Positions 39,519-64,000 of a stretch of 64,000 nucleotides of DNA are shown piece after piece. Made by a program: the position numbers and the translations under genes. Each line of letters begins with the position of its first letter. Within the stretch, counting starts at the first letter, position 1. The DNA is from a virus, in IMG/VR virus record IMGVR_UViG_3300029206_000002; one strand, written 5' to 3'. The notes beneath the pieces were generated by a model. That model was not told the DNA's origin. It saw only the letters and a program-made list of their open reading frames with translations, and searched no databases.

Positions 39519-39592
39519 TCATTACTTTACTAAACCTTAATAAATGTTAAATATTTTAAACACTTATTATATTAATACGTTTTAAGGGCATT

Positions 39593-40907: not shown

Positions 40908-41051
40908 TTTACCTTATCCTGTTATAGAAGTAATATGCAATAGTCCATTTAAGTTTGCTAAAGAAGTAATGTCAAATGATGAAGATACTAAAGATATTAT
41001 GTTTGCTTACTTATTTAAACTTAAATTAAAAAAGAGATATAAAGAAACAAA

Positions 41052-42201: not shown

Positions 42202-42203
42202 TT

Positions 42204-42719: not shown

Positions 42720-42721
42720 TT

Positions 42722-43039
42722 ATGGAAAATTTAAATATTACAATTACTCCAGTAAGTGCATCAGGGGTTGGAAGTTTTATAGAAGTGGTTATCGGTGATA
42801 GTAGATATAAGACCGATATTGTCCAAGGAGAATTCACAGAGGATGTAATGAAGGAGTTAATGAATAAATTAATCACTAATCAGATTCCTGCTGAACAACA
42901 AGAAGCGGTAGAATTGAAATTCTATCAACTATTAGACGCTATTACTAATACTAAAGCAGAAGAAGAATATAGAGCTCAGCATCCTGAAGAATTCATGCCA
43001 GAGAATTTTGAACCTAGTGTTGAAGAAGTAATTGAGTAA
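42722..43039 (+). CDS. hypothetical acidic protein
   Basis: 105-aa ORF. Confidence 0.45.
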   Translation: MENLNITITPVSASGVGSFIEVVIGDSRYKTDIVQGEFTEDVMKELMNKLITNQIPAEQQEAVELKFYQLLDAITNTKAEEEYRAQHPEEFMPENFEPSVEEVIE

Positions 43040-43041
43040 TT

Positions 43042-43383
43042 ATGAAGAAAGTTTTAATAAGTAATGAATGTTATCCTATTGAATTAGATAACAATTTGAA
43101 TCCAGCACCATTGGGGTCTAACAGCCTTCTTAGAAATGCATATTGTATAAAAGAAGAGAGCGAAGTATATATTAATGGTGAACATAAATATACAGCTAAA
43201 CCTGGAGATATAATAATCAGTTTTTATGGTATTGAAGATAGATACAATAAAACAGAATATTTTTTAGTACCGGGAAAATTATTTGAAGATTACTTTGTAA
43301 GACTAGAAAAATATGAAGCTAGTAAGCAAAGCGAAATTAATAACGAAGGATTATGCTGTGATTGTTGTGAACCCATACGATGA
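43042..43383 (+). CDS. hypothetical protein
   Basis: 113-aa ORF with C-terminal CCDCCEP. Confidence 0.45.
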   Translation: MKKVLISNECYPIELDNNLNPAPLGSNSLLRNAYCIKEESEVYINGEHKYTAKPGDIIISFYGIEDRYNKTEYFLVPGKLFEDYFVRLEKYEASKQSEINNEGLCCDCCEPIR

Positions 43384-43907
43384 AACTATTTGATATAAAC
43401 GGTGGTAAAGTAGTAATACACCCTGATGCTTTAGGTCTCCCGTTCTTTAAAAAGTTGTGGGAGGCTGATAAGCCAGATAAACAACAAGCTACAAATGTAA
43501 TAAGTTATATAGTACTTATGTGGTATTTTAAATCTCCATATGTACTTCAGCTAGAACCAGATATCAGAGAAAAGAAGCTTAAGTAGTTATACTTTGGTGA
43601 TGAGAATTATAATCTTACTGTAGAAGAAAAGTCTTGTGAAGATGATTATAAGAAGCTAATATATACTAGAAATCTAAGAATGCTTGATAGTATGAGAAAC
43701 AAAGTAGATACTATTAGTAAGTATTATGAAGATTCTCTAGAAGAGCAACTAGATGAAAAGAAGATTAAAGATCTATTAGCTGGTATGGAAAAAGTAAAAG
43801 CTACTTTTCAGACACTAGATTTCCTCGAAAAAGCAGTTAAAGCTGAAGAAGTTAGTACTACTAAAGTACGTGGAGATGCTCAGATTAATCCTTATGAATT
43901 AGCTTAA
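43380..43907 (+). CDS. first TAG-containing late gene (176 aa)
   Basis: Track ORFs 43380..43586 and 43680..43907 are in the same frame and joined by a single in-frame TAG at 43584; the gene ends in TAA. Confidence 0.5.
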
Positions 43908-43958
43908 TTTGTGCAAATTATACACAAGTTTATAACAATAAATTAATGAGTACGTTAT

Positions 43959-44198
43959 ATGAATATAAATAAAGAAACTATGAAGAAAGTACTTGATTTA
44001 ACAAAATGCAATAGCACTGAAGAAATTTGTGATGTGCTTGAAAAAGAAATTGATAACAAACGAAAAGCAGATGCTTATCTTAAAGAAGTCGGTGAATATT
44101 TGGTTGTAGAATATAAGAAAGAAGCAGTAGCTGAACCTAAGAAGAAAGGTATTATTAAGCGTACTATTCATTGGCTAAAGAGTTTGTTTAAGAAATAA
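43959..44198 (+). CDS. hypothetical protein
   Basis: 79-aa ORF. Confidence 0.4.
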   Translation: MNINKETMKKVLDLTKCNSTEEICDVLEKEIDNKRKADAYLKEVGEYLVVEYKKEAVAEPKKKGIIKRTIHWLKSLFKK

Positions 44199-44255
44199 TC
44201 TCGTTGAACTGATAGAGAGGTCTGACAGGGACAGACGTTAAATATTCCCTGGCAC

Positions 44256-44330
44256 TCTCCTGTGATGTAAAGGTAACATACTGAGCTCTAACCTCAGAAT
44301 TGTCCGTTCGAGTCGAGACCGGGAGGACCA
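44256..44330 (+). tRNA. amber suppressor tRNA (anticodon CUA, reads UAG); class-I, isotype unresolved
   Basis: Folded by hand: acceptor TCTCCTG/CGGGAGG (U1.G72 and U6.G67 wobbles), U8, D-arm ATGT-aaaGGta-ACAT, anticodon arm CTGAG-cTCTAac-CTCAG, 4-nt variable loop, T-arm GTCCG-TTCGAGT-CGAG(A)AC with a bulged A, discriminator A, CCA encoded. A terminator follows at 44386-44425. Confidence 0.75.
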
Positions 44331-44385
44331 ATTAAAAAAGCTGATTTATGGATAAAGTGTACACAACCAAAATCGCTTATGACTA

Positions 44386-44425
44386 GGGTTACAGAGTACA
44401 AAAAGACGGCTCTGTAACCCTTTTT
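44386..44425 (+). terminator. rho-independent terminator
   Basis: GGGTTACAGAG-13 nt-CTCTGTAACCC followed by TTTTT. Confidence 0.7.
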
Positions 44426-44515
44426 AATAAGCCTGTAAATAAAATTCTTCTTAAAAAGAAAAATAATAATAGAAACCTACTAGCGTTCCACATAAATGGA
44501 AGTCAATTAGTATAT

Positions 44516-45037
44516 GTGTCTAAACTTCAAGCTTACCAAAAATTTGGAGAAAAGGCTTTGAATGAAAATTGTTTTTATGTAGATGGAGATACTACTAATT
44601 GTTCTTTTGATAACATTGAATTAAAAAGTACGTATAAAAATTCTTTAGAATTAAAGAATGTATACAGATGTTCTAAATGTGGTAAAGAACTATCTGAAAA
44701 ATACTTTTATAAAACTGATTTAAAAAACAAAGCTATAAAAAATAGAATATGTATTTGTAAAAATTGCCTTAAAGAAAAAAGAAACAATACTCATGAATAC
44801 ATACAAAGATTTAAAGACAAATGCATATGCTGTGGAGAATCTGATGTAGCATGCTTAGATTTTCATCACTTAAATGATAAGTATGAATCTTTATCTCATA
44901 TGAATTCTCATTCTGCTGATACTATAAATAAAGAAATAAATAAATGCATTATATTGTGTGCTAACTGCCATAGAAAACTACACTACTATAAGTGTAATGT
45001 AGATGAATTAAAAACAAAAATACATGATAGACTTTAA
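44516..45037 (+). CDS. HNH homing-type endonuclease
   Basis: CxxC...DFHHLNDK...N...CANCH zinc-HNH arrangement. No in-frame TAG; the 3' end overlaps the TerL start. Confidence 0.65.
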   Translation: MSKLQAYQKFGEKALNENCFYVDGDTTNCSFDNIELKSTYKNSLELKNVYRCSKCGKELSEKYFYKTDLKNKAIKNRICICKNCLKEKRNNTHEYIQRFKDKCICCGESDVACLDFHHLNDKYESLSHMNSHSADTINKEINKCIILCANCHRKLHYYKCNVDELKTKIHDRL

Positions 45038-47084
45038 TAAAAAAATTAAAAATTCTGATAAATTTAGATAGCCAGCACTAGAATTTATTAAAACTGGAAA
45101 GTACTGTCAATATCCTGCTGGCTGTACTGAATATTACACATACTGGGACGAATAGAAAGATCGTTGCATTAATGGTTATACCGCAGAGGATGGAGATTAC
45201 ATCACTGGGTATAACTATTTTTATATCAATTTCTGTCCAATGCAACGTATAGTTAACACTGTTACTAAACTACCTAACGGAGAAACTAAAGTAAAAAGAG
45301 ATAGTGTAGTAACATTCCCTGATTTCTATGATTATGACTATTTCTACTTCTAGGCAGTACAAGAAGCAGAAGATAAAGGAAAACACATATGTTTACTTAA
45401 ATCACGCCGTAAAGGATATAGTTACAAAGGTGGAGCTATGGCATGTCGTAATTATTATTTGATACCTAATAGCAAAACATATATATATGCTTCTAATAAA
45501 CAGTATCTTACGGAAGATGGTATCCTTACTAAAGCTTGGGACTATATGGACTTTATAGATAAGAATACAGCTTGGGGTAAGAAACGATCTGTTAACAGTA
45601 CTATGCGTAAACGAGCTGGATTCTGGACTAAAGATGAATTTGGCAATGAAGTAGAAATGGGTTATAAATCAGAAATTATTGGCGTTACTTTGAAAGATAA
45701 TCCTGATGTAGTACGTGGTAAACGTGCCAAATTAATTCTATTTGAAGAAGGAGGTTCATTCTCAGAATTAGGTGCTGCGTGGCAAATTGCTAGACCATCT
45801 GTAGAACAAGACGGTGTAGCGTTTGGTACTATGATTGTATGGGGAACTGGTGGTGACGAAGGCTCTGCATTTGAAACTATGAAAGATATGTTCTATAATC
45901 CAGATGGATACAATTGTTTAGGATTTGAGAACATATGGGATAGTACACCTACAGATAAATTGTGTGGATTCTTTGTTCCATAGTATACTAATCTAGATAC
46001 TAGAGATGATGATGGTAATAGAATATACATGGATGATGATGGTAATACTATTACTAAACCTTCCCTTGAATTTATATTAGATGAACGTAGAAAGGTAATA
46101 AGTACAGCTACTAATACTACAGCTATAGACCGTTATGTTGCAGAGCGTCCTATTACTCCACAAGAAGCAATGCTAGAATTTAACGGTAATATATTTCCTA
46201 AGAAAGAATTACAGGAGCAATTAGGACTTATTCGTACTAATACTTAGTTATAGAATCATAAACAAGTAGGTGATTTAATATTTGATGAGTCTGGCAATAT
46301 CAAATGGATACCTAAGAAACATGGTGATGTTACCAAGTACCCACTTGGTAAAGACGATGATCCTACTGGCTCAATAGTTATATGGGAACATCCAGCTAAA
46401 GATGCAACAGCTGGATTATATATAATAGGTGTAGACCCTTATGATCATGACTAGTCTGGTACTAATTCATTAGGATCATCTATAGTATATAAGAGATTTT
46501 AGAACTTTGAAGAGTATTACGATATTATAGTAGCTGAATACACTGGTAGACCTGCAACAGCTGAAGAGTATTATGAGAATTTACGTAAGTTAGCATTATA
46601 CTACAATGCACGTATAATGTATGAAAATGAACGCAAAGGTCTATTCCCTTACTTTACTGCTAAACATTGCGATTACTTATTAGCTGATCAGCCTGATATT
46701 ATTAACGATATAGTTAGTAATTCTAAAGTACAAAGAAGAAAAGGTTGTCATATGAATAAGTAGATAAAACAATGGGGTGAAGGTATGATCAAAGAATGGT
46801 TAAATGAAGAGTATGCTCCAGGTAAGAAAAACCTAACTAGGATACTATCAGAGCCGCTATTAGAAGAGCTAATAAGCTATAATGATACAGGTAACTTTGA
46901 CCGAGTGATGGCGTTGATGTAGGTTATGATATATAGAGAACAACTGTATAATGTAGTTGTTAAAAAGAAAGAAAAAGAAAATAAATAGAAGATGCTCTTT
47001 GATGGACCAATTTTTGCGCAGAGTTGGTTCAATGACGATACTCCTAGAGTATTTTCTAATGACGATAATGTATATACATTTTAA
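45024..47084 (+). CDS. terminase large subunit (TerL), TAG read as sense
   Basis: One frame from ATG 45024 to TAA 47082 with about 9 in-frame TAG. Deviant Walker A LLKSRRKGYS, Walker B KLILFEEGG and coupling motif MIVWGTGGD. Nuclease-domain acidic motifs LYIIGVDPYDHD and IMYENERKG. Confidence 0.7.
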
Positions 47085-47086
47085 CT

Positions 47087-49612
47087 ATGAAGAATACTAA
47101 AAGTTTCCCTGCACAGAAACTACCAATGTCAAAGAAGACACAAGCCTGGAAAGAAGCCTGCGTAGACTATGTAGTAGGCGCTGGAGATTCAGGATTTGGT
47201 GGTAATGGTAGATCTAGATCTGACGAGATGTAGACTTACTATGATTTATATAATAGCATATATAATGAAAAGGATCTTAAATATGTAACCAATCCGTTTA
47301 AACAAGATGATGGATTTCCTGCTATGGCATAGGATTATAATATCATCAAACCATATGTAGATCAGTTACTTGGTGAAGAAACTAAGAGACCTTTTAATTT
47401 TCATCCACAACGTACAAGTGATATAGCTGCTAGTGAAATGTAGGAAAAGGCTAAAGAAATGTTAATGGATTATATTCAAGCTACTATAGCAAGTAAGTTA
47501 AGCCCAGAACAAGCAGCTAGATATGAACAAGCATTAGCTACAGGAGAAATCTAGACTCCAGAAGCTATAGCTAAGTATCTATAGAAAGATTATAAAGATA
47601 TAGCAGAAACTGAAGCTTATCATGCATTACAATTTCTAAAGAGAAAATTAAATCTTACTCATGAGTTTTATAAAGGTTGGAAAGACGCTTTAATAGGTGG
47701 AGAAGAAATATACTACATAGGTGTAATCAATGGAGATCCTTATGTAGAAAGAGTAAACCCTATGTATTTTGATTATGAGCATTCTTTAGACTTAGAATTC
47801 ATAGATGATGCAGCATGGTGTCGTAGAAAGATGATTATGTCTGCTACTGAGATATACGATAGATTCTATGATAAAATGTCTGAAAGACAACTAAATGAAT
47901 TATTAGAACTTATTGATCAAAGACCTGGAGCAGGTAATAATCCAGAGATAAGAAAGACTAGTATAGATTATGAATCTATTAAGCTACATAAGATTAATAG
48001 TTTTACAGATAATCCATTTGATATAGATCATATAGTAGTATATCATTGCTGTTGGAAATCTTTCAAAAAGATAGGATTTGTTACTTTACTAAACCCAGAA
48101 ACTGGAGAAGCTGAAGAATTTCAAGTAGATGAAGATTATAAAGTAACAGGTACTGAACAATCTGTAGAATGGGATTGGATTATTGAAGTATGGGAAGGAT
48201 ATAGAATCGGTGATGATATGTACATAGGGATCCAGCCTATTGAATATCAACATATATCTGCTGATAATCCTAATTCATAGAAATTACCTTACACTGGTGT
48301 AGTGTATAACAATACTAATAGTAAGCCTAGATCATTAGTAAGTATGATGAAACCATTACAGTATATGTATATTGTAGTATGGTATAGACTTGAATTAGCA
48401 TTATCTAGAGATAAAGGTAAAGTAGCAGTAATGGATATTACTTAGATACCTAAATCTATGAACATTGATGTTAATAAGTGGATGCATTACTTAAGTGCAC
48501 TAGGTGTAGCTTTTATTAATCCTTATGATGAAGGATGGGATATACCAGGACGTGAAGGAGGTAAACCATCTCAATTCAACTAGTTATCCTCTTGGGACTT
48601 AACTATGAGTAATGTAATAGCTGAGTATATTCAATTGATGCAGAAGATTGAAGATATGGTAGCTAAACTTACTGGTATTACTCCACAGAGACAAGGATAG
48701 ATTGCTGCTAGTGAATTAGTAAGTAACGCTAATACTGCTGTTAATATGTCTTATCATATTACTGAACCTTGGTTCTGGAATCATAATTAGGTGAAGAGAA
48801 GAGTATTAACAATGCTATTGAATACTTCTAAAGCAGCTTGGAAAGATAATAAGAGATACTTGAATTATATATTAGATGATGCTACCAGAGCATTTGTACA
48901 ATTATCTGATAATTTCTTCTATGAAGATATGGATATATTTGTAGATGATAGCACTAAGAATCAACAATATATAGATCAATTAAAGCAACTGTTACAACCT
49001 GCTATGTAGAATGGTGCTAGTCTATTAGATATTGCTGAAATCATTACTTTAGATAATATGAGTATAATTAAGAATAGACTTGAGGAAATTGAACAGAAAA
49101 GAATGGAACAAATGCAGCAACAGCAGCAAGCTGAACAACAAGCACAACAGCAAATGGCAGAACAACAGAATCAGCTTAAAGAAGAAGAACTTATGCTTAA
49201 GGAAGCTGAACTGGATCTTGAAAAATATAAAGTAGACCAAGACAGATATAAAGCAGAACAAGATAATGCTACTAAAATTACTGTAGCACAAATTAATTCT
49301 TATCGTGGTGCTGAGAATATGGATCAAGATATGAATGGAATTCCTGATCCAATTGAAATAGGAAAGCAAGCTCTAGAATAGCAGAAGATAAATTCTGATA
49401 TTGCTACTAAACAATTAGAACTTAACAATAAGCGTAGAGAAATAGAGCAGAAGAGAGAAGCTGAAAATAAGAAGATACAGCTTGAAAAAGATAGAATGAA
49501 GCATGAAACTGAATTACAACGTATGTCTGATAAAGCTGCTATGGATAGAGAGAAGCTAAAGGCAAAGACAGCTTTGAGAAATAAAGTAGTAGGCGAATCT
49601 AAATCTAAATAA
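47087..49612 (+). CDS. putative portal protein (~841 aa) with Q-rich coiled-coil C-terminus, TAG read as sense
   Basis: Single frame from ATG 47087 to TAA 49610, interrupted only by TAG. Position immediately after TerL and size fit a crAss-like portal. Confidence 0.5.
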
Positions 49613-49614
49613 CT

Positions 49615-50064
49615 ATGAACTGGTTTAAAGAAACATGGTGGTTAGTAAAACAATTATTTACTACTACTAAGAATAAAGATAAAGTATAGTATAAACATAT
49701 GGATCATTATCCTTTTAGTGGATACTCTGCCATGAGTTGGTGCGGGTATATTTTAACTAAAAAGAAAGAATCTAATATTAAAACTACTACTTGGAATCAC
49801 GAAAATATACATTTACAGTAGGCTAAGAATAAGGGTAGTTGGTTAAAGTATTATGCTGATTATGTATGGGAGTGGATCAAAGGCAATCCTATTACTTACC
49901 CAGCATCTTCTGCATACTATACAATACCTTATGAAATGGAAGCATACGCAAATGAAGATAAATCTGATTACGAAATTAATACGGATAAGTATAAAATAAA
50001 AAATCGTAAAAAGATCTATAGAGAGAATAAGAAAAATTGGTTTAACTATATTAAAAATTTATAA
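49615..50064 (+). CDS. hypothetical late protein (149 aa), TAG read as sense
   Basis: In-frame TAG at 2 positions; ends in TAA. Confidence 0.45.
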
Positions 50065-50131
50065 TTATGGCATGTGGTGGAAAGAAAAGTGGCAAGAAGT
50101 CATCTAAAAGTGGAAAGAAAAATAAATAACT

Positions 50132-51604
50132 ATGGAACGTGAAGCATTTAGATAGAGAATGCAACAGTATAAGTAGGCTAGGGAGAATAATCCCTAGCTG
50201 AAGTACTGGGATTGGAAAAAAGAAAATGATTTAGGCTACTAGCTATATAAAAATAATCTTCCAAGTAATCTACAAGTAGAAACAGATGATTATGATTTAT
50301 ATGGAGCTTATGAATCTAATATGCAGCCTGAACTAAATGAAGATGGTACTTATCATTTAGGTAGTAGAGATCCTTACACTGGTAGAATTCTAAAAAGTAA
50401 ATAGCATCCGACATATTAGAAGGCAATAGAATCTGAAATATCTGCTGGTTATTTTCCATATGAAAAGAATAATATTACATATACTAAAACTTATTCTCCT
50501 GTTGATATAAGCGGATATGCAGATGGTGGCATTATAGATGAAGATCCACCATAGAGTACTAGTGAAAGACCTATTACTAACTTTGACCCTAAAGGAGATC
50601 CATATAATCCTACATATGGATATAACCCAGGTGCAGGTTATGTTTCAAATTCAGATCCATTAGGTAGTTTATATGTAGAAGGAGCTTTACTTAATCCAGT
50701 ATTTAAATTAGCAGGTAATGCAGTATCTAATGTAGCTAGAGGATTAACTAAATACTCTTCTAAATATGTACCAGAAGTAAGAAGAACTGTGTAGGATAAA
50801 ATAAATAGTTTGTTCCGTAGAGAAGCTGAAGATAAAGCTCGTACATATAAATTATATGATGATGCTATAGAATCTAGAAATAGAATAATTGAAGATCTAT
50901 ATTCTAATCCAGCTTATATGGAAAGAGCTAGATAGATTTAGAATACATATGGCGATGATTACGCTAAAGTATATGAAGATATAATTAATTAGTATAATAC
51001 TAATTATTGGAATTTACCTAATCCTGTTATAAAACAGTTAGACGCTAAGGCTAAAATGTAGGCTAAAGATGCAGCTGTAAATAGGTATATTACTAGAAGA
51101 CAGCCAGCAGGATATGATGATTTTGAGTATTAGATAAATAGAAATCTTACAGAGATAGATTATCCTACTACTAGACACGAACTAGGACACTATGTAGATT
51201 TTAATTTAGCCAAAAGTTCAAATCCTGATTATAGCAACTCTATGTTTGCAGAGTTAAAAAGAGATTTATCAAAATAGAAGAATCCATTATTTCCAGATAA
51301 AACTGATTATTATAGTAAAGGTACAGAATAGAAGTCTTATATGAATACTCTTAGAGAGTATATGTTTAAGAATGGTATGATTAATAATATAGGAGATAAG
51401 GTAACTTCTAGATAGATTAAGAAAGCTATAAGATCATTACCTAAAGATATGAGATCTATTGAAGCTGCTTATCTTCAATTTGCTACACCTGGATAGTATA
51501 CAAAATGGTTTAACAAGATACCTTTACTTGGTACTTATCCAATAGTAAATAAACAATTTTAGAATTATGAAGAAGATAAAGATAAAGCCAGAGAATAGAG
51601 GTAA
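50132..51604 (+). CDS. late structural protein (~490 aa) with very high TAG density (19 in-frame TAG)
   Basis: Read codon by codon from ATG 50132 to TAA 51602; the only interruptions are TAG. Confidence 0.5.
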
Positions 51605-51761
51605 GTTCAATGCAACTAAAAAGAAAACAGGAAAGACAACCGAAGAACTAACTCACAGTAAGAATCCTGTAACAAGAAAGAGAGCAATATTCGCTTAGAA
51701 TGCTGCTAAATGGAATAAAGGTAAAAAGAAGAAAAAATAAATCTAATTAAATATTTTAATT

Positions 51762-52940
51762 ATGGATAAAAAAATGACATTAGGTGGATTTGAAGCTGTA
51801 CTAGATAGCTTTATCCCTAATCCAGATGGTGGTTTTAGAAATTCAAATATTGATGAAAACGTTAATGTCAATGCTGATGAATTTGAATCACTAGACGATG
51901 AAGAATTGGAAGATATTAAAAAGAACAATATCGAAGTAAAGAATAATAAAGAAAATCCAGTAGAGGAAGATACTGAGGAAGAAGAAATCGAAGAAGAAGA
52001 TATTGAAGATAAACCAAAACGTAAGCCTGGTAGACCTCGTAAAGAAGAAACTATTGAGGAAGAAACAGAAGAGGAAGAAGAGGTTGAAGATAATAATGAA
52101 GAAAACGTTGTTACTAACTTCTTTGATGCTATGGCTGAAAAACTCAATTGGGAATTTGAAGAAGGTGAAGACAAACCCAAGAATGTAGATGAGTTAATTA
52201 ATTACTTCCAAAATGTCATTGAAGAAAATAGTAAGCCTGAATACTCTAGTGAAGAAGTTGAAGCACTAGATAATTTCGTAAAACAAGGTGGAGATTTAAA
52301 GAAGTATTTGACTATTGATGCTGAATTAGATTTAGATGATATTGACATTGAAGATGAAACTAATCAGAAATTGGTAGTAAAACAACTACTTAAAGAGAAG
52401 GGATTCTCTACTAAGAAGATTGATAAGTTAGTAAGTAGATACGAAGAAGCTGGATTACTTGAAGATGAAGCACAAGACGCTTTAGAAGATCTTAAAGAGA
52501 TTAAAGAGGAAAAGAAGAAACAGCTATTAGAGGATCAGAAAAAGGCTTATCAGATATAGTTGCAGAGACAACAGCAATTCTACGATAACGTTGTTAGCGA
52601 AATAAAAGGCTTAAAGAATATACGTGGTATTACAGTCCCTGAAAAAGATAAAAAGGTTTTAATGGATTATATACTTAAGCCAGACACAGACGGTAAAACA
52701 AAGTACCAAAAGGACTATGCTAAGGGTGGTGTTAAGAATCTGATAGAATCAGCATACTTTACAATGAATGCTGACAAACTTATTGAGGCTGCTAAACGTG
52801 AAGGAAATAATTCAGCTATTGATAAGTTTAGACGAAGTTTAAAATCTAGTAGTATTACTACTAAATCTAGAAAACAAGCTACGGGTTCTGATGATGATCC
52901 AATTTGGTTCTCAGCTGCACGACAACTGCGTATATCATAA
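51762..52940 (+). CDS. acidic E-rich protein (393 aa), possible scaffold, one in-frame TAG
   Basis: Track ORFs 51762..52559 and 52560..52940 are in the same frame and joined by TAG at 52557. Lies immediately upstream of the putative MCP. Confidence 0.45.
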
Positions 52941-52982
52941 TAATTAATTATATAAATAAAAAAATTAAATTACTAGTATTTT

Positions 52983-54449
52983 ATGGATAATAATATTCTT
53001 AATAACCTCCAATTATACAAAGGTAAATGGTTTTCTGATTTGATCGACACTAATAAGATTAGTCTCGCTTCTCAGCAAAGACCTTATGAGGTATCTACTA
53101 TCCTGTCATACGTATTTGGTACTAAAGATAATGGTTACAGTACTTCTCTTGATATGTTGACAGGTGGTCTTGGAAATGTAATGACTATTGATCAGCCTTC
53201 ATTTGAATGGGGTGTTATGATCGACCAAGATAGAGCTGTTACAATTCGTGACGCTAAATGGAATGGTGCTGCAATTAATGAAAATTCTACTCCAGGTTTG
53301 GGTAATACACCTATCACTTTGTGGTTGGAAGATGCATGGTTTGGTCCTGGTGCTACTATCGAATTTGATGATAAGAGTCAAGCACGTATTCAGGACGCTC
53401 CGTATCAAGATGGCAATCTGTATGTTTATACAGTATTTGTATCTAATGGTAGTCCCGCTTCTTATATTGACCCGGCTGTTTTAGCTTCTGGTTGCCAAGT
53501 AAACCGTTTGGCTTCTGCTTATGAAGAATACAGTGAAGAGGCTGATATCCTGAATTACAATACTCACTTCAAGATGCGTAACTATTTGACTACAGTACGT
53601 CTGTCTTATGATATCACAGGTTCTGCTTACTCTACAGTTATGGCAGTAGCTTTGAAAGATCCTAAGACTGGTAAAACTTCTTACTTGTGGTCTACATTCC
53701 AGGAATGGGTTGCAATGCGTGAGTGGTACAAACGTCTTGAAAGAGCTTTGGTATACAATCAGAACAACGTAAACAAAGATGGTTCTTGTAATCTGAAAGG
53801 TAAAAATGGTCGTCCTGCATTTATTGGTGCTGGTTTGTTGGAACAGATTGCTCCATCTAACAGACGTTACTACACTCGTTTGACAGCTGAATTGTTGGAA
53901 GACTTCTTGTTTGACCTGTCTTACAATGTATTGGGTACTAATGAACGTAAGTTCGTTGCCTTGACTGGTGAAATGGGTATGCGTGAATTTGACCGTGTAC
54001 TTAAAGAAAAGATGGCTAACATGAACTTGATTGACACAGTATTCGTAACTGGTTCTGGTGATAATTTGAAGTTTGGTGGTCAGTTTAAGACTTACGCAAT
54101 GTCTAATGGTATTGAATTGACTTTGAAGTATTTCCCGTTGTATGACAATACTACTTACAATCGTCAGTTGCATCCTGTTACTTTGAAACCGTTGGAGTCT
54201 TACCGTATGACATTCTTGGATTTGGGTCGTCGTGATGGTGAAGCTAACATTGTTAAAGTAGTTCGTAAAGATCGTGAATTCGTTAACTGGTGTACAGCTG
54301 GTTCTGTAACTCCTGCTGGTTACGCTCACTCTAACACAGAAGTTCGTTCTAACGCTAAGGATGGTTACTCAGTACACTTCTTGGGTGAAGTAGGTATTAT
54401 GTTACGTGATCCTAGGGCATGTGGAGAATTGATCATGATGGCTGAGTAA
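52983..54449 (+). CDS. putative major capsid protein (488 aa), TAG-free
   Basis: Largest TAG-free ORF in the late block, with higher GC and a hairpin at 54466-54493 after it. Size and position fit a crAss-like MCP. No motif confirmation was possible. Confidence 0.5.
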   Translation: MDNNILNNLQLYKGKWFSDLIDTNKISLASQQRPYEVSTILSYVFGTKDNGYSTSLDMLTGGLGNVMTIDQPSFEWGVMIDQDRAVTIRDAKWNGAAINENSTPGLGNTPITLWLEDAWFGPGATIEFDDKSQARIQDAPYQDGNLYVYTVFVSNGSPASYIDPAVLASGCQVNRLASAYEEYSEEADILNYNTHFKMRNYLTTVRLSYDITGSAYSTVMAVALKDPKTGKTSYLWSTFQEWVAMREWYKRLERALVYNQNNVNKDGSCNLKGKNGRPAFIGAGLLEQIAPSNRRYYTRLTAELLEDFLFDLSYNVLGTNERKFVALTGEMGMREFDRVLKEKMANMNLIDTVFVTGSGDNLKFGGQFKTYAMSNGIELTLKYFPLYDNTTYNRQLHPVTLKPLESYRMTFLDLGRRDGEANIVKVVRKDREFVNWCTAGSVTPAGYAHSNTEVRSNAKDGYSVHFLGEVGIMLRDPRACGELIMMAE

Positions 54450-54525
54450 TTCAGTTAAAAAATATTAGGGGCTTGAATGCTAGCGAGCCCCTATAATACT
54501 AACTTGATAATCTAATTTTATAATT

Positions 54526-55278
54526 ATGGAAGTAATCGTTAGAATGACAAAAGTAAATCCTTGGACAGGATTGATTAAATGGTCTAACTGCTTTGATTTT
54601 ATTAGTTCTTACTGGACTAGATCTGGTAGTAGATACACTGGTTTAAAAGCAGACAAAGCTAGAGAACTAGAACAGAAAATGGGTAAAGCTGAAGGAGAAT
54701 TAGATCCTGATAGCACATTTTGGGATACATTTGCAATTAAGATTGGTAAGAAAGAATTAGTAATTAATACTGATAGACCTGAAGGAGAATTGCAATATTT
54801 ATTCCTATTAGGACATAAGAGAGTAGCAAATGGCATTGATAAAGTAACTCCATCTACTGATTATGTACTTATAAATAAAGAAGCTGAAGCAGAACAAATT
54901 AATAAAGCTAACAAAGTTAAACGTGATGCTTATAGAGCATTAGATAAGATGAGTCTTGAAGATATGCGCAAATGTCTTAGACTTCTTGGAATTAAAGCTG
55001 ACACTATGTCTAATGAATTGGTTGAAGCTAGACTTGGTGAAAACGTAGAAGCTGATCCAGCAAGATTTATTAGAATTTGGGTAGATAATCCTAATAAAGA
55101 AATTAACTTTGTAATTGAAGAAGCTTTAAGTAAAAATATTATTCGTAAGAACAGAGCATCATATTACTTTGGTACTGATCTTATTGGTAACGGTCTTGAA
55201 GATGTAATTGCATATTTGAAAGACAAAAAGAATCAAGATATTTACTTAAGTATTATGTCTGAAATAAAATCTAAATAA
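54526..55278 (+). CDS. late structural protein (250 aa), TAG-free
   Basis: Intact ORF directly after the MCP. Confidence 0.5.
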   Translation: MEVIVRMTKVNPWTGLIKWSNCFDFISSYWTRSGSRYTGLKADKARELEQKMGKAEGELDPDSTFWDTFAIKIGKKELVINTDRPEGELQYLFLLGHKRVANGIDKVTPSTDYVLINKEAEAEQINKANKVKRDAYRALDKMSLEDMRKCLRLLGIKADTMSNELVEARLGENVEADPARFIRIWVDNPNKEINFVIEEALSKNIIRKNRASYYFGTDLIGNGLEDVIAYLKDKKNQDIYLSIMSEIKSK

Positions 55279-55955
55279 TGACTAGAGAACAATTTCACTC
55301 ATATTTTAAAGTAGCAATGGACAAGAACTCTCAAAGCGTAGCCTTTGGGGGTTGTCCTGCTTTCTTACCAGAAGAAATAGATTACTGGTTAGATCAAGGT
55401 TTATACCAAGAAATCAGTAATAAGTTTACTGGTAATAACTACTTAAAGACTAGCTTTGAAGGATCTGTAAAACGTATTCACGATTTAGAAAAATTAGTAC
55501 GTACAGATGTTAACGTTGTTGCTAATACTGAAACAAATTCAAATAGATGTTATGTTACTAACTTATTCAATGGTGACAGAATGTTCTTTGTAGATGCAGT
55601 GTTAAACTTCAATAGTAACAAAGCTACTATAAAATTAATAGATCATTCTGACGCTACTAAGTTCAAGAAGACTTACAATAACAATCCTTGGATAGAAGAT
55701 CCAGTAGCTGTAATAGAAGATAATACTCTATATATCTATTATGATTACTTAGCTATGAGTAGTAATAGCTATTCTGTAGATATTACCTATGTTAAGTTTC
55801 CTACTAAGATAGAAGACTTACCAGCTGAAGGTATGAGTGAAATACCAGAGTATATGTAGTTTGAAGTAATTAACAGAGCTGTAGAACTAGCATTAGAAGA
55901 TATTGAGTCTAAGAGAATATAGACTAAATCACAGTTAAACCAAATAGATGAATGA
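55278..55955 (+). CDS. late structural protein (225 aa), TAG read as sense
   Basis: Track ORF 55278..55859 continues through 2 TAG to TGA 55953-55955. Confidence 0.5.
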
Positions 55956-55957
55956 TT

Positions 55958-56692
55958 ATGACAAATCGTGGATTTCAAATCGAGTTTGAACGTAGGCTAT
56001 AGTTAATGGATCCTAATTTAGTTATTAAGGATAAGCTATCCTCAGACACTATTATATCATTCATTAATGAGGCAATTGATAAATTTTATAAAACAAGATA
56101 CTCAGGTATTAACTTTAAAGCTCAAGGATTTGAGTAGACAGAAAAGCGTATAGATGATTTGCGTACTTTAGTTCGTAAAAAGAACTATTCTAACACTTAG
56201 ATAATTAAAGGAGTTAGAAACTCATACTCAGTAGAATTACCAGATGATTATGTATTATTACTTGGAGATACTGCTGGTATACAGCCGAGTGATGAATATC
56301 CTAACGAATGCTGGGAAAAAGACGATTTAGGTGCATATATAGTTAAGTATACAGATACGTTAGAATCTACGATTGAAACATTAGATAGACAATTAAGTAA
56401 TTCACTATCTGAACACAAATTAAAATATTGTCAAGCTAGACCTTTAAAGTTAATTCAAGATAATAATGTAATATTATACACAGACGGTAAATATAAAGTA
56501 AGTGAATATGAGATTACATACTTAGCTAAGCCATCTAAAATTAATTCAAGTAATATTACTAATACCGAATATACAGATTTGCCAGAACATACACATATGG
56601 AAATTGTGAAAATGGCAATCTAGATTTATCTTGCTACTAAACCAATGTAGCACTATAATGCTTATTCCAACGAAATTGCTTCAATGGAATAA
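55958..56692 (+). CDS. late structural protein (244 aa), TAG read as sense
   Basis: ATG 55958 to TAA 56690 with 5 in-frame TAG. Confidence 0.5.
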
Positions 56693-56798
56693 CAAATAAA
56701 TTAATGCGTTTGTCTGACCTGGAAATCTGAAATAAGGAAAGTAGAAGGACAAACTAGACTAGCGCTAAGTCTAACAATTAATTATTTTTATATAAACT

Positions 56799-57779
56799 AT
56801 GATTACACGCGTTGATACCGTATTAATCGGAAAGAAATGCCCTACAGCCTATACTACTGTAGATGCTTTGGCTAAAGGGGACGTTGCTTTATTTGACTAG
56901 AATAAAGCACTAATTACAACTGCTGCTAATGCAGTAAATGCATCTACTGTTTATGTAGGTGTAGCTGGGGATAATATGACAATTACTCTGCCCAACGGTA
57001 CTACTGCAACAAAGAGAATGGTAGAATACTCTAACGCCATTCAAAAAGCTTCTAAACCTTCGTATGTACAAGGTGATTATGTTGCACCAGTTCAAGAGAA
57101 AATCGAAATTGATTTAACTAGTGCTACTGTTGTTATCGGTCACAGATATGTTTTACGCATTGTTTATAAAGACTTATATGAAGCTCCAGGACAGTTTACT
57201 CATACTTATGAAGTAATTGCTTCAACTGAGACTGCTGATGATTTGGGAAATGCACTTTTAGCTAAAATTAACAAACACGCTAATCGTAGAGTAAGTGCTA
57301 CATTTGCAAGTCATAAGTTAACTTTAACTGCAATGGAAAAAGATGACAATGAAGGAGTCAATTCTTTGAATGAATACTCTGTAGTTTCTATGGAAGCTTC
57401 TCTGTACGTTACTATTCCTGGTGCATTATTGTCTAATGTTCCTGAAGCAGTTCCTGGTGCAACTATTACTAAGACTGCTGGTAAACCTGGTAAAGGTTAC
57501 TGGAAACAGGTACGTGATATGGAAGTACGTATGTTGGGTTATAAGGGTCATGTATTCACAGATGCGTATCCTGCAATTGAACCAAAACGCAATGTTGAAG
57601 AAGGTTCTACATACGATTACTTTACTATTGAAAATGATAATCTGTATTTGAGTCCTGATAATCAGTATATTAAGACTACTCCGTTGACTACAGAAGTATA
57701 TATTGAACACAATGCTACTAATAAAACTTCTGTATTCGCTAAGGCTCTTGAGGCATTTATTACAGGTGAAGCAGAATAA
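56799..57779 (+). CDS. abundant late structural protein (326 aa), one in-frame TAG
   Basis: ATG 56799, TAG at 56898, then continuous with track ORF 56976..57779. Higher GC, and a strong terminator follows. Confidence 0.5.
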
Positions 57780-57803
57780 TACACGGTTTCTTTATTTAAA
57801 CCC

Positions 57804-57845
57804 AGGCGAGGTTGAGGTTTATCCTCGGCTTCGCCTTTTTAATTT
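57804..57845 (+). terminator. strong rho-independent terminator
   Basis: AGGCGAGGTTGAGG-tttat-CCTCGGCTTCGCCT followed by TTTTT. Confidence 0.75.
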
Positions 57846-57854
57846 TTTGTAGAT

Positions 57855-58388
57855 ATGAAAATAATTAATGCAACATTAAAGAACGATACTATAACTATAA
57901 CTTTAGATGCTAAGGCTAATGTACATAAGATTTATCTAGATTCAATAATAAATCAAAAGAATATGTATTCTGATGAAGATGATAAACACACTCATGTAAT
58001 ATCTGACTTTGTTGCTTAGGATAATACTGTTATTGTTGATATTACTGAGTATAATGAAACTTCTTTTATAGTAAGCGTTCTTACATCAGAGGGTAATAGA
58101 GATGAAGCTATAGCAATAGATCAGAATGAATTATATTTAGCTAAAGTAAATCTACTTACTACATATTGTAATACATGTTTAGATAAACATTAGAAGCATA
58201 TAATAATGATGTGTGATTTTAGATCATAGTTATTGTAGTATGCTTTAGAGCACAATCTTACTAAAGACGCTATTGAACATTACATAGATCTTAGTAGAAT
58301 GTTAGGTATGATAGATTATCATAATTGTAGTAAGTGCCTATCTCCTAATAAAGTGTGTAAATGTTGTAATGGTATGTGTGCGCTATGA
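57855..58388 (+). CDS. late protein (177 aa) with C-terminal Cys cluster, TAG read as sense
   Basis: 4 in-frame TAG; ...CSKCLSPNKVCKCCNGMCAL; ends in TGA, which overlaps the next ATG. Confidence 0.45.
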
Positions 58389-58924
58389 TAAAAGAAGAAT
58401 ATAAAAATGGATGCAGATTGAAAGAATAGGTAAAGTATAACATTGATTATGATGATTGCCAAATTCTTAATCTAACCTGTGCTAATTACATATATGATTT
58501 AGTATAGGAATCTTCTAAATATGAAACAAAATTAGAAGACATTAAAAAGATGTTATATATGATAGAAAAGTTATTAGGACACGAAGTACAATATGATATT
58601 CCAGAATATCATGGAGATAATAAAAAATGTTATTTTGGTGTAGTATCAGATAATTTTGTTATTAATGAAGATAATATAAAACAATTAGATTATGTACTAC
58701 AAGATACAAAAGAATTTGTTAAAAGCTTTAGTACTGATTATCAAAAGATATTATATTGTTATCCTAATGAATTTGGAGATATAAATAGCATAAAAGATCA
58801 AAATCAATTTGAGATAAAAGAGTCATTTTAGAGGAATGCTGTAACTATAGATGGTATATTATATAATGTATATATACTGAAAGACGCATCCACAGTAGAT
58901 AATTATAAAATATATTTTATATGA
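58385..58924 (+). CDS. late protein (179 aa), TAG read as sense
   Basis: ATGA overlaps at both ends; 3 in-frame TAG. Confidence 0.45.
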
Positions 58925-61900
58925 TACAGGTAGCTGATAATTTTAACTATAGAGGAAAAAAGCCTAACTTTGATAGAGATAGTTTTGATACATTGTAGGA
59001 TATGAAGAACTATTCTGAAAATAGTTTAGATGATGGTCATATATCTTATTGTAAAGAAACTGATAAACATTATAAGTTTAATTCTAATAATCAGTCAGAT
59101 CCTACTACTGGTAAATGGGTAGAATAGCACGAAGCTGTTCCAGCTGATGAAGAAGATATAACTGAACAAAATGGCACTCTATAGTTAGCAAATAAAACTT
59201 ATGATAAACAGTCTTTCAGTGGTTTGGGTAGAGTATATCTAAGAAAGAATATAGTAGGTGATAAGAATGTTCTTACTTAGGCTATGATCAATAAAGCTAA
59301 TACTATATATGTTATTCAGTATGATTATGATTTAAAAGAAGCTAGTATAAATATTCCGGAAAATTGTGTTTTATAGTTTGATGGTGGAAGTTTGAGTAAT
59401 GGTACAATTGTAGGTAATAATACTAAGATTAAAACTGAATTAGAAAAGATATTTAACAATATAACTATAGACGGAGATTGGAACGTAGTTGAAGCACACC
59501 CAGAATGGTTTGGAGCACTACCAGATGGAATATATGATTGCACAGATGCTATATAGAAAACTATTAATAGTTTTGATGTTACTAAGCTAAATAACGGAGT
59601 TTATTTTATAAATGGTACTATTCAGTTAAGGAGTCATGTAGTTATATTTGGAGAAAAAGGTAAAACTACTATAAAATCTCCAGTAACTAAAGAATTTGAT
59701 GTAAATGATTTACCAGATGCAAATACTCTTCCCTACGTTTTTTATTCTGAGAAAGCTGTAAAAGTTTTATTTAAAGGCATTTCTTTTATGCTTGGCGATT
59801 ATTACAACGGTATAGGTTTTAAACAGACCGTTAACGGTAATACAGATGAATGGGATGCTAAAATATACATAGATAATTGTCATTTTGAGCATGGGTATAG
59901 AGCTGTAAGTATTGAAAGGACCTATAGAGAATGTAGAATAATAGATTCTATTTCATATTACGCATGTGGTGACTATGCTTTTTTTATGGAAGGAACCGAT
60001 AATTCTATTCATAACAGTACGGTTGGGAGTTGTCAACAAGGAGGTATTTATTTATCTCAAAATTCAAGAATATCTAATTGTAAAGTTTTTATTGCTAATA
60101 AAGCTTGGAGATATAAATATGATGATGTTACTCCTAGAAGTAAATACGCAGTTTATATAAGTGGTAGTTATTGTAATGTAACAGGTCTAGATATATAGCA
60201 AAATTGTGCTAATGGTATTTATATAGAAGGGCATGATAACTATGTTCAAGCTATTTTAAACGCTAATGGGTATTAGAGAGATAAACAGTCGTCAGTATTA
60301 TGTGCAAATGCTGTTTTAAAATGTAGTAATAGCATACTATTATTCACTTCAACTACAGGTTTTTTAAATAGTTATGTATCGCACTATTTATATTCTATTG
60401 GGAATCCAGCTTATGCAGTTAAAGGTAATTATATAAATATAAATACTCACGATGAACCTGGTGAAAATACACCTTATGTATTAAGTAACTTTTCAGCCTT
60501 TAATAGTATAATATTTAATGGAGTAAATATAACTAAAAATCATAATTTACCAGATGATTTCGTTAAAAATAATATTCATTCTGATAATGTATCTAAAGGA
60601 GAAAGAATGTATGTTACAGTTAATTCTGGTAAAACTGTTTCTTTTGATTTAGACGTTACAACTTTTATTACACAATATACTGTTGTACATCAATATCTAA
60701 CTTTTATGATTAATCCATCATTAGCAATAGTAGACACTCCTTTATATGAAGTAGGTAAATACAAATTGATAATAACTATTAATGATGTAGATTATATTTT
60801 AAAATCAGATATATTTTAGAATGGATTAGTATCAATAGAATCTATTAAATATTTATATGATATAATACCAGATCCAAAAGATTCGCAATGTAAGTTAAGG
60901 TATGAATTAACAAATACTAGTGATTCAGCTGTAAATATAGCAATTGATTATCCTATAATCGAGATATACAAAAACAATACTGGCTATGGTAGTAGTTATA
61001 AAACTAATATTATTCCAACTGATTTAAGTAAAGATTTTTGTAAGGACAACAAGGGTATTTATGGAAAAGTAGGGAATAACACATATGACATTAACTTAGG
61101 AATTGTTAGATTTAATAATGCTGCTTCTGATTCTTCAGAATCTTATGAATATATCAAAATAACTAAAATTCCTACAAGTGGTTTTACTTTTTTATATTCA
61201 ACATATAACATATTAAGTAAGTATTCTCTGTTATATTTAGATAATAAATTGTATATATTATCTGATGTATATGATACTGGCAATGATTCTTTTCTGAATA
61301 TAAAATATTTATTTGATTCTATATCTTATACATTAGATATTTATATTAAAGTTCCAACAAAATATGGAAAATTAATAGTTAGAGATACTAAATGGGCTAA
61401 TCTTAATACTTATTAGTGGTATTCTAAAAATACAGATCCATATCCATCAGAAGCCGTTGATGCTGAATTTATTTCTTCTAATGTACTTACTTTACCAAAT
61501 ACTTTAATTGGTACAAAAACATATGATAAATTTGGCAATGAATTAACTTGGTCTAAATCCGATTGGCTAAATCCAGACGGGTCTCTAGTTACAAAAGTTA
61601 TTTTTGCAAGCAAATTAAATGATTTTACTAAAAATAACACTATATATAATATTGTTAGATATATAGATTTAAAAGGAGAAACTCTTACTATTCCTGAAAA
61701 CAGTGTACTTAATTTTATCGGAGGCGCCATTGGAAATGGAACTATAATTGGAAATAAAACTAAAGTCATAAATCTAAATGTTGATAGAATTATTTTATCA
61801 GGTACTTGGTTTGATTCAGGAATTACTTCTAATAGACCTACTAACGTTTTAGTAGGATTTCAATACTTTGATACTACTGTAAACAAACCAATTTTTTGGG

Positions 61901-61941
61901 ATGGATCTAAATGGGTAGATGCTACAGGAGCTACTGTATAA
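58921..61941 (+). CDS. tail fibre/tailspike-like protein (~1006 aa) with beta-helix-type repeats, TAG read as sense
   Basis: Single frame from ATG 58921 to TAA 61939 with about 12 in-frame TAG. Repeated NGTIVGNNTKI and GGAIGNGTIIGNKTKV motifs typical of right-handed beta-helix (pectate-lyase-like) tailspikes. Confidence 0.5.
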
Positions 61942-61959
61942 CAATAAAATAATTAAGAT

Positions 61960-64000
61960 ATGGCATAGTATGCAACTAAAGATGAATTAAATGAACTCAC
62001 AGGATTAGTAAGAACATTGTAGGGTAATGTATAGACTCTAGATACTAGTGTTGGTGAGCTTGATACATTAGTTGAAAGAATTAATCATTTAGCTACTCTT
62101 AAAGATGTCACTATTACTTATATTACAGAAGGAGATTTACTGTAGTATGCTAGTGATGGTACATGGCACAATATCCAACCATCAGCATTAGGTATTGGTG
62201 GTGGTGAAGGCGGTGGTGTAGTAGATACTTCTGTAGTAAAAGCTTTGATTAAATCTGAAGGTAGTAAGCTGTTTATAAGTAAACTATATGATGATGTATC
62301 TTCAGGTATAATTACTTTCAACGGTGGTTTAAGAAGTAATAAAATGACTTATCTAAATCAAGGAGTTTAGATGGGTACTTTTGTTACTGGTATGATTGGT
62401 GGTACAGGTGCTCAAATAGATAAAGATGGTAGAGGAGAAATGACCAGCCTTATTCTTAGAGAGTTCTTAGAAGTACCGGAATTAAGATTTAATAAGATAG
62501 ATGTAGTAAGTGGTGAGCTATGGAATTCAATTGCATTTGGTACAGTTGAAGATGTAGATCTAGTTAACCAAATTGTTACATTAAAATTAGAAGATGGTGA
62601 GTATAGTGGTATACATGTAAATGATATATGTAGAGGTATATTCCATAATTTTGATGGAGTTAATAATACTGAAACTGGTACTGACGATTGTGGGTTTGAT
62701 AAAGTACAAGGATTCTCTACAGCTTATTTTACACCTATAGAAGTACTAGATGCTAGAGGTAAACAGTTTAGGTATTCATTAAAACAAGGTACTACACAGC
62801 ATCCTTGTAAGGCAATGAAGTTTGCCGTTTATGGTAACTTTACTGATGAAACTAGAAGATCTAGTGCTTATGCTACTCGTACATATAAACGATATTTAAA
62901 GGATGTAAATACTTGGGCTCTGAACTATACTAATATAGCTTCACAGTTTGGTAACCTAAACGGTCTTACTATACCAGGTGCTCCTAATAATGGTCAATTA
63001 CAAGGTGATGGTGCATACTTGACTAATGTATATATGACTGGTTCTATTATTGAATTTACACCAGAATAGTTAGACCAATTACATGGACAAGATGCTTACG
63101 CTGTTTCACTTAGTAGTGAGTTTGGTACAGTAATTGTAGATAATGAATTTAACATTATTGAAGATTATAACCAAACCAAATCTCTTACTTTTGCTGTACA
63201 AGCTTGGAAAGGTAAAACAGAATTAACATATAGTACAGTATATAATGAAGGAAGTTACTTTGTAGAGTATACTCCAACAGGTGTAGAATGTACTATGCAA
63301 GATGGTGTATTCAAAGTAACTAAGATAACTAATATCAATGATATGCGAATTGATTTAGTTATTAACTGTGAAGGAGCTATATCAGTAAATAGAAGATACA
63401 ATATGAGTTACCAACTTGAAGCTAACGGATTGTGGGTAACTTATAATGATAATGATGCTACACCAGATAGACCTGTTGGTGATGGTACTTCTTATGGATG
63501 GCATAGAAACTATACAGCTTCAGCAATTTGGATGTCTACTAAGAGTTCTCGTAAAGTAGATGAAGGAGAGTGGGGAGATCCGAATAGATTCCGCGGTGCT
63601 TCAGTAGAAGGTGCTGATGGTCAATACACAGTGTTCTGTTATACTAATTCTAGTGTACAACCACCTAAGCCTACTAGTTCACAAATACCTCCTGTAGATG
63701 ATAACTATACTTGGTACATGTATCCACCTAATAGAGAAACTAAGGAAGTATTTACTTGGATGATTCAAGCTACTGTATATGCAGATAAATCATTATCTGG
63801 TTGGACAGATCCTATTAGACTTACTGGGGAAACAGGTGAAGACGGTTCTGATGGAACTAAGTTAGAATTCATTTACAAAGTAACCAGTGCAAGTGATGCT
63901 CCTGATAAACCAGATACATCTTAGCAAGATGATTATATACCATTTGGTTGGTCAGACAGTCCTCAAGGAGTATCTAAAGATATGATGTATGAGTGGGTAT
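61960..64000 (+). CDS. large tail-associated protein, 3'-partial, TAG read as sense
   Basis: ATG 61960. The frame is shared with track ORFs 62371 and 63295, with in-frame TAG at 61966, 62035, 62143, 62368, 63067 and 63922, and runs past the window end. Confidence 0.5.

Follow-up and report, generated by a model that had tools for sequence, protein, structure and literature searches.

When a codon that closes genes in one part of a phage genome lies in mid-frame in another, the question arises whether both parts are read with the same code. We consider this question for the amber codon TAG in IMG/VR virus record IMGVR_UViG_3300029206_000002, of which a stretch of 64,000 nucleotides (hereafter, the window) was analyzed. 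An earlier note on this DNA had proposed that the late structural genes use TAG as a sense codon, while the early genes follow the standard code. The interpretation that we favor, with a probability of about 0.93, is that TAG has two readings in this phage: the early and middle genes are standard-code, and in the late genes TAG would stand for glutamine (Gln), inserted through a phage-encoded tRNA with the anticodon CUA.

The window has a G+C content of 30.9%. A megablast search of positions 45012-52000 against phage records retrieved NC_055894.1 (crAss-like phage cr6_1; Afonbuvirus faecalis; Crassvirales, Suoliviridae, Bearivirinae) at 96% identity, and BLAST of the whole window aligned it collinearly to cr6_1 in reverse complement; most segments are 93-97% identical at the nucleotide level, and a handful of replacements interrupt the alignment. 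The major capsid protein belongs to PHROG 11589 (E=1e-131), and its homologue in the related sequence L141 carries the domain PF23898 (Crass_capsid). Judged by these matches, the phage is crAss-like, belongs to the family Suoliviridae and is related to cr6_1 at the strain level; the window represents 64 kb of its genome. It should be noted that the NC_055894.1 record already annotates a full-length terminase large subunit (TerL), portal protein, major head protein and tail proteins, as well as a "tRNA-Gln" that has the same neighboring genes on both sides as the tRNA of the window.

TAG as a sense codon in the late genes

We modeled 19 late plus-strand genes, each from its first ATG, in 43380-64000 and 3-5458. 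Their 8434 codons contain 106 in-frame TAG codons and not a single TAA or TGA. In the two off-frames of the same genes, 986 TAA, 626 TGA and 561 TAG were counted among 16866 codons; TAA and TGA together thus make up ~9.6% of the off-frame codons, and the lack of either in 8434 in-frame codons is therefore beyond chance. Long plus-strand open reading frames (ORFs) that are closed only by TAA or TGA, with several TAGs in each, extend from 43371 to the window end and across 3-5458. All complete late genes (18 of 18) terminate in TAA (15) or TGA (3), exactly as the earlier note had stated.

We also compared the fraction of the late block covered by ATG-started ORFs of at least 60 amino acids (aa), which is a simple ORF cover and not a Prodigal prediction. 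The cover was 44% under the standard code (code 11); it was 45% when TGA was translated and 97% when TAG was, so that the increase in coding density, a check that had been suggested in the earlier note, appears only when TAG is translated. A rise from 44% to 97% lies above the criterion of a >10% increase in coding density with code 15 (Peters 2022, PMC9523058; Borges 2021, bioRxiv 10.1101/2021.08.26.457843).

Homology runs through every TAG in TerL and the portal protein. TerL aligns over 100% of its 686 aa, across the TAGs, to full-length proteins and to standard-code phage genomes; the same full-length late proteins are found on hundreds of contigs, and the same TAG pattern is seen in seven other recoded genomes. 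Two outcomes had been named beforehand as fatal to translation of TAG, namely homologues that align only to the TAG-bounded fragments and alignment gaps at the TAG positions; neither was seen. These data confirm that the late plus-strand genes read TAG as sense, and that the large plus-strand genes from 43380 to the window end and at 1-5458 are single proteins only if TAG is translated, as had been claimed. The individual counts given earlier were of uneven accuracy: about 19 TAGs in gene 50132-51604 is exactly right, whereas TerL has 11 and not about 9, and the tail gene of 1006 codons has 10 and not about 12.

The first recoded gene, 43380-43907, breaks under code 11 into 43380-43586 and 43680-43907. 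A tblastn comparison with the standard-code phage cr10_1 crosses its TAG, at 50% identity and with AAA (Lys) opposite the TAG; because the homologue in cr10_1 spans this position, 43380-43907 is one gene. PHROG and Pfam searches of 43380-43907, 50132-51604 and several other late genes matched no families.

The use of TAG is gene-specific. Of the 27 presumed Gln codons of gene 50132-51604, 19 (70%) are TAG and the other eight CAA/CAG, and full-length homologues of this gene occur on many contigs of ~100 kb; the homologue in L141 (L141:3001-5151, 81% identical) keeps the bias, with 20 TAG versus 15 CAA/CAG. Conversely, the major capsid protein gene has no TAG in the window, in cr6_1 or in L141 (L141:6528-7994). 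Both the avoidance of TAG in the capsid gene of three genomes and the preference for TAG in 50132-51604 fit an incomplete efficiency of suppression. For annotation, it follows that gene calling in the late block, from position 43380, must treat TAG as Gln; the standard code loses or fragments more than half of this block.

The amino acid encoded by TAG

The TerL-portal regions of 13 crAss-like phages were compared at the level of DNA codons. Homologues in protein databases have Q at nearly all conserved TAG positions; we rejected these as a test for Gln because the entries (686-aa TerL proteins, 98% identical) had themselves been translated with TAG as Q, which makes the argument circular, and the comparison of DNA codons took their place. 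Phages without in-frame TAG served as standard-code controls: four Boorivirinae (cr10_1, cr50_1, cr1_1 and cr55_1), Azobacteroides phage ProJPt-Bp1 (TerL only) and crAss001 (TerL and portal). Around TerL, portal and major capsid protein, the genes of the Boorivirinae follow the same order as in the window, and TerL and portal are 61-65% identical at the protein level, but these phages lack a CTA tRNA upstream of TerL and have CAA/CAG where the window has TAG. We treat them as standard-code because TAG is absent from their TerL and portal genes and because the portal gene ends in TAG.

In TerL and portal, 16 of the 23 TAGs of the window are opposite CAA/CAG in cr10_1 (binomial p ~1e-18, with a background Gln frequency of 3.6%). 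When all alignable late genes were compared with cr10_1, Gln was found at 18 of 50 TAG sites; Glu (9), Lys (5) and Arg (3) came next, and the sums of BLOSUM62 scores over these sites were 101 for Q, 70 for E and 39 for K. At least one of eight recoded genomes has TAG in 89 alignment columns; in these columns, 37% of the Boorivirinae residues are Gln, compared to a background of 5.6%. At short distance the result is similar: between the window and cr6_1, which are 96% identical, 79 TAGs are kept, and 11 of the 17 changes are from TAG to CAG/CAA or the reverse. The comparison of gene 50132-51604 with its L141 homologue shows 14 of 18 aligned TAGs kept, three replaced by CAA/CAG and one by AAG. 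No match was found by tblastn of 50132-51604, 58921-61941, 61960-end and 3-1049 against the standard-code cr10_1.

These comparisons support Gln as the residue that TAG would encode in the late genes, which is what the earlier note had presumed and had expected from an alignment to standard-code homologues. Peptides with Gln at TAG positions have been found in two other crAss-like phages (Peters 2022).

The suppressor tRNA

ARAGORN predicts a 75-nt tRNA with the anticodon CTA at 44256-44330; its label "Pyl" derives from the anticodon alone. The D-arm of this tRNA conforms to the motif GTGRTGTAAWGGTARCAY. When cellular genomes were scanned, this motif was found at 120 loci, and among cellular tRNAs containing GTGRTGTAAWGGTARCAY, 101 of 110 (92%) are tRNA-Gln (52 with UUG and 49 with CUG). 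The tRNA-Gln genes of Bacteroidales have U1-A72, G2-C71 and the discriminator A73; U1 and A73 are present in all five phage suppressors compared, including that of the window. U35 is known to weigh in recognition by glutaminyl-tRNA synthetase (GlnRS) in E. coli. Two IMG/VR assemblies carry the same tRNA allele with a G67 -> A change, which turns the U6-G67 wobble into a U-A pair; this change appears structure-preserving, as expected of a functional stem. Minimum free energy folding yields no cloverleaf (z=0.23) and is uninformative, whereas ARAGORN and Rfam do give a cloverleaf. The body of the tRNA thus looks Gln-like, and charging with Gln is plausible. Neither a phage release factor nor an aminoacyl-tRNA synthetase was found in the cr6_1 annotation or among the window proteins scanned, part of the early ORFs being unscanned.

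Two observations on other tRNAs are added here. The only other tRNA of the window is a tRNA-Ile(GAU) on the minus strand of the early block (29762-29836; Rfam, 52.8 bits). In the crAss-like phage cr60_1, a 103-nt Rfam tRNA match (L002:2585-2687; 35.2 bits), which ARAGORN does not call, lies immediately upstream of the suppressor tRNA and may be an intron-containing or long-arm tRNA.

Compatibility of the early and middle genes with the standard code

Our model of the minus strand has 44 ORFs, of which 28 end in TAA, 10 in TGA and six in TAG. There is no internal TAG in 29 minus-strand ORFs at 5493-29734 (6683 codons), and none in 1431 codons of the middle genes. Translation of TAG lifts the ORF cover of the early block only from 82% to 86%. 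The early genes are compatible with the standard code. These data bear out the earlier description of the minus-strand replication genes, and of the plus-strand genes at 38855-43383, as intact standard-code ORFs. The same description had three early genes stopping at TAG; such ORFs exist, although their number is six.

The first in-frame TAG of the plus-strand block is at 43584-43586. The code boundary is thus 4.5 kb into this block, after 13 TAG-free genes, and the strand switch itself is at ~38.4-38.8 kb. The boundary had been placed correctly at gene 43380, but its position "one gene ahead" of the tRNA is only approximate, as two ORFs (43380-43907 and 43959-44198) precede the tRNA.

We also considered two minus-strand frames that open when TAG is sense, 32900-33499 (four TAGs) and 34542-35144 (two TAGs), as candidates for recoded early genes and rejected both. 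The former was rejected because it consists of a standard ORF of 140 aa and an extension into a Hatchet ribozyme, in a region rich in structured RNAs.

Proposed mechanism and alternative readings

The following scheme, which is already in the literature and is the mechanism with the best support, would account for the two readings. The unmodified machinery of a standard-code Bacteroidales host would translate the TAG-free early genes (minus strand, 5.5-38.3 kb) and the 13 plus-strand genes, and in at least some early genes TAG would be a true stop. The genes for packaging, head and tail, which run from 43380 around the genome to 3-5458, would carry 1-23 TAGs, each read as Gln; the major capsid protein, of all virion proteins the most abundant, avoids TAG, and a few genes such as 50132-51604 favor it. 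The tRNA, encoded just upstream of TerL and ~5.4 kb into the plus-strand block, would presumably be charged with Gln by the GlnRS of the host and would compete with release factor 1 (RF1) at UAG. Full-length late proteins could then be made only after the suppressor tRNA has accumulated, and translation of the late genes would be gated in this way. The sequence itself shows the recoding pattern and its arrangement in blocks, identifies Gln as the residue encoded, and contains a tRNA of Gln-like character; the charging by host GlnRS, the competition with RF1, the timing and the regulatory role are what we infer, and the late-only action of the suppressor is suggested by gene order and the literature.

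Several observations weigh against this scheme. For four of the six TAG-terminated early ORFs, a stop and a read-through are indistinguishable, and no fewer than three of the six (gp56, gp60 and gp77) are entered as read through in the record of cr6_1. The 1468-aa protein, which is poorly conserved (25% identity to cr10_1), has Gln opposite none of its 14 aligned TAG sites. The match of the tRNA to the Rfam model is weak, 33.1 bits versus a gathering score of 29 (the suppressor alleles of relatives score 54.5 bits in cr6_1, 53.8 in cr60_1 and 44.7 in cr4_1), and its T-stem, as drawn by ARAGORN, is imperfect. It has A10 and C2-G71, compared to G10 and G2-C71 in the tRNA-Gln of Bacteroidales, and its nearest (and sole) BLAST match in phage records is typed Met(CAT), the cr6_1 suppressor not being matched.

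The alternative that survives best, although we consider it unlikely, is that TAG is sense genome-wide and throughout infection, that the early genes merely avoid TAG (i.e., are "dual-coded"), and that the apparent TAG stops are read through. The read-through annotation in cr6_1 and the slight increase in early cover with TAG as sense are in agreement with this possibility, and early blocks of such phages have been described as dual-coded rather than strictly code 11 (Pfennig 2022, bioRxiv 10.1101/2022.06.29.495998). However, the TAG of ORF 10585-11382 is located where the homologue in the standard-code cr10_1 ends, and the 32-codon extension beyond it is without homology. The extension of 33062-33484 enters the Hatchet ribozyme at 32892-33016, and that of 18812-19531 meets a second TAG within 8 codons and has an atypical composition, rich in G, R, W and L. 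These results support at least two early TAGs, those of 10585-11382 and 33062-33484, as probable real stops, and the read-through in the cr6_1 record is apparently due to the use of one translation table for the whole genome. Furthermore, the host is expected to be standard-code and the suppressor tRNA must first be transcribed, and in related phages no recoded peptides came from the code-11 region (Peters 2022).

It is considerably less probable that TAG encodes an amino acid other than Gln (e.g., Glu or Lys), or that a Met-derived tRNA body inserts something else. Glu and Lys are the next commonest residues at TAG-aligned positions, and both the Met(CAT) typing of the nearest relative and the A10 and C2-G71 of the tRNA point in that direction. 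Conversely, Gln is 6- to 20-fold over background and has the top BLOSUM sum, and in proteins Gln is usually replaced by Glu, Lys or Arg. Between the window and cr6_1, TAG is swapped mainly with CAG/CAA, once with GAG and never with AAG. The D-arm is of the type that is tRNA-Gln in 92% of the cellular tRNAs carrying the motif, and proteomics in related phages gave Gln. The view that the TAGs are genuine stops, and the late genes pseudogenized fragments of a defective genome or an assembly or sequencing artifact, would fit the 44% cover of the fragmented code-11 block but is already refuted, since only TAG interrupts the frames, 79 TAG sites are kept in an independent assembly, the same pattern occurs in seven other recoded genomes, and the homology is unbroken across every TerL and portal TAG on the way to the same full-length proteins in hundreds of contigs.

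Replacement at the tRNA/endonuclease slot

The segment 44257-45023, which contains the tRNA and the HNH endonuclease gene, is replaced in cr6_1 exactly from the first tRNA base to the start codon of TerL, and the flanks are nearly identical. In cr6_1 the slot (L001:10959-12000) has a different CTA tRNA, 49% identical to that of the window, and a GIY-YIG endonuclease in place of the HNH enzyme. One IMG/VR contig (L019) has the same arrangement as the window, and another (L020; 98 kb) has the tRNA allele of the window followed by a different gene. L020 also has an insertion of ~1 kb inside TerL, at the equivalent of window position 45418/45419, where the window has none; the insertion is probably an intron or intein.

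An endonuclease gene adjoins the suppressor tRNA in four of the five recoded relatives examined. These arrangements suggest replacement driven by homing endonucleases, with the suppressor tRNA locus as its hotspot. A tentative extension, which we regard as possible but rather doubtful, is that the code-switch device is a mobile, replaceable cassette, and that homing endonucleases drive the horizontal exchange of suppressor tRNAs among crAss-like phages. If true, cassette exchange could explain the appearance and disappearance of amber recoding at short phylogenetic distances. In the literature searched, which was not exhaustive, we found no statement of this idea. The wholesale difference of the slot from cr6_1 is in itself only mildly new. 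In phage T4, the gene of the homing endonuclease SegB is located in or beside the tRNA gene region. Both loci combine a homing endonuclease with phage tRNA genes, and the enzyme could drive preferential inheritance or replacement of the locus; however, the tRNAs of T4 are not code-changing suppressors, and at the window locus homing is suggested by allele replacement only.

Gene content of the window

The features of the window are listed in Table 1.

Table 1. Genes and RNAs of the window in genomic order of the blocks, with their TAG codons and the basis of assignment
Feature	Position	Strand	TAG codons and stops	Basis or remark
Early/replication block	5493..38292	-	No internal TAG in ORFs; six ORFs end in TAG	
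TAG-terminated early ORFs	10585-11382, 18812-19531, 23796-24194, 33062-33484, 33954-34271, 36486-36719	-	TAG stop	
13 genes including chaperonin-like, transcriptional regulator, dUTPase	38855..43383	+	No TAG; stops TAA/TGA	cr6_1 annotation
First recoded gene, 175 aa, function unassigned	43380..43907	+	One TAG, 43584-43586	TAG kept in cr6_1
TAG-free gene, 79 aa	43959..44198	+	0	cr6_1: hypothetical protein
Amber suppressor tRNA, anticodon CUA, Gln-type body (predicted)	44256..44330	+		ARAGORN, Rfam; CCA encoded
HNH homing endonuclease, 229 aa	44348..45037	+	1	PHROG 2255, E=2e-23; directly after tRNA
TerL (terminase large subunit), 686 aa	45024..47084	+	11; TAA stop	Homologue alignment
Portal protein, 841 aa	47087..49612	+	12; TAA stop	Homologue alignment
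Small zincin-like protease	49615..50064	+	2	PHROG 15610 protease, E=2e-15
HExxH metalloprotease-like protein, 490 aa; TAG-richest gene	50132..51604	+	19 versus 8 CAA/CAG	HExxH motif
Acidic, scaffold-like protein, 392 aa	51762..52940	+	1	
Major capsid protein, 488 aa	52983..54449	+	0	PHROG 11589 major head protein, E=1e-131
Six late genes	54526-55278, 55278-55955, 55952-56692, 56799-57779, 57855-58388, 58385-58924	+	0, 2, 5, 1, 4, 3	
Tail protein, 1006 aa	58921..61941	+	10	
Large tail-fiber protein, cut by window end	61960..64000	+	7 so far	cr6_1 gp08 "straight fibre tail protein"
3' end of giant gene, downstream end of late block	3..1049	+	4	cr6_1 equivalents of 3-5458: gp36, gp37
1468-aa gene, same late block	1052..5458	+	23	cr6_1 equivalents of 3-5458: gp36, gp37

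Apart from the tRNA slot, the window differs from cr6_1 in several segments. The gene 49615-50064 and most of gene 50132-51604 are missing from cr6_1, as is a pair of minus-strand genes (window 10465-12804) that encode a DUF7192 protein (10585-11382) and an AAA+ protein, an AAA_5-type ATPase (11382-12761); this pair is nevertheless present in the more distant cr10_1 (6796-8926). The DNA polymerase gene (16479-18632, minus strand) encodes 717 aa versus 616 aa in cr6_1, and its segment 17365-18402 is only 65% identical to that of cr6_1 in an otherwise 96% identical genome, which may reflect an exchange of polymerase alleles such as has been reported in crAss-like phages. The tail protein 58921-61941 is conserved at both ends, while nothing in cr6_1 corresponds to its central region (59408-61912), as if the receptor-binding region had been exchanged.

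Where the early block is poor in genes, Rfam identifies four structured RNAs, all on the minus strand: RAGATH-14 at 35989-36219 (169 bits), the Hatchet ribozyme at 32892-33016 (102 bits), RAGATH-9 at 31612-31757 (123 bits) and RAGATH-7-assoc at 30326-30453 (140 bits); a Hatchet ribozyme is also present in cr6_1 (L001:1365-1483). Elsewhere in the early block, the region 21950-23790 (~1.85 kb) has no ORF of more than 78 aa, has a perfect 27-nt direct repeat at 22012 and 22113, has no Rfam match at the gathering score, and corresponds to an unannotated gap in cr6_1 (45796-47875). This region may serve as a replication origin or encode an RNA not yet described.

Discussion

The recoding of TAG to Gln in the late block is already known: the same arrangement was described by Yutin 2021 (PMC7886860), Borges 2021 and Pfennig 2022, it has been validated proteomically in relatives, and it is annotated in the near-identical cr6_1, whose RefSeq record treats TAG as Gln. 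The earlier note was thus right to identify it as the amber reassignment described for crAss-like phages. In Borges 2021, recoding of late and lysis genes, a regulatory hypothesis and a gene-specific preference for TAG were reported, and the bias seen here in the capsid gene and in 50132-51604 echoes the latter. Pfennig 2022 described the division into blocks, argued that the early ones are dual-coded, and located Sup-CTA tRNAs close to the 5' end of the code-15 strand; the position of the boundary and tRNA, 4.5 kb into the plus-strand block, is consistent with this placement.

Compared to other crAss-like phages with block-wise code 15, the window shows nothing different in kind. TAG is used as Gln only in the late structural block, the replication genes are standard-code or dual-coded, the recoded strand block has a Sup-CTA tRNA close to its 5' end, code 15 gives a higher coding density, and a few gene families prefer TAG over CAA/CAG; a particular of the window is that its code switch is not at the strand switch.

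The present analysis adds a little to this: a comparison, codon by codon, with sister phages of standard code that clearly demonstrates TAG as Gln, evidence for at least two probable real TAG stops among the early genes, and the suppressor tRNA locus as a likely hotspot of replacement of alleles and homing endonucleases. For the biology of these phages, the window is one more case of the well-documented stop-codon recoding that would gate late genes in gut crAss-like phages, and it opens no new question.

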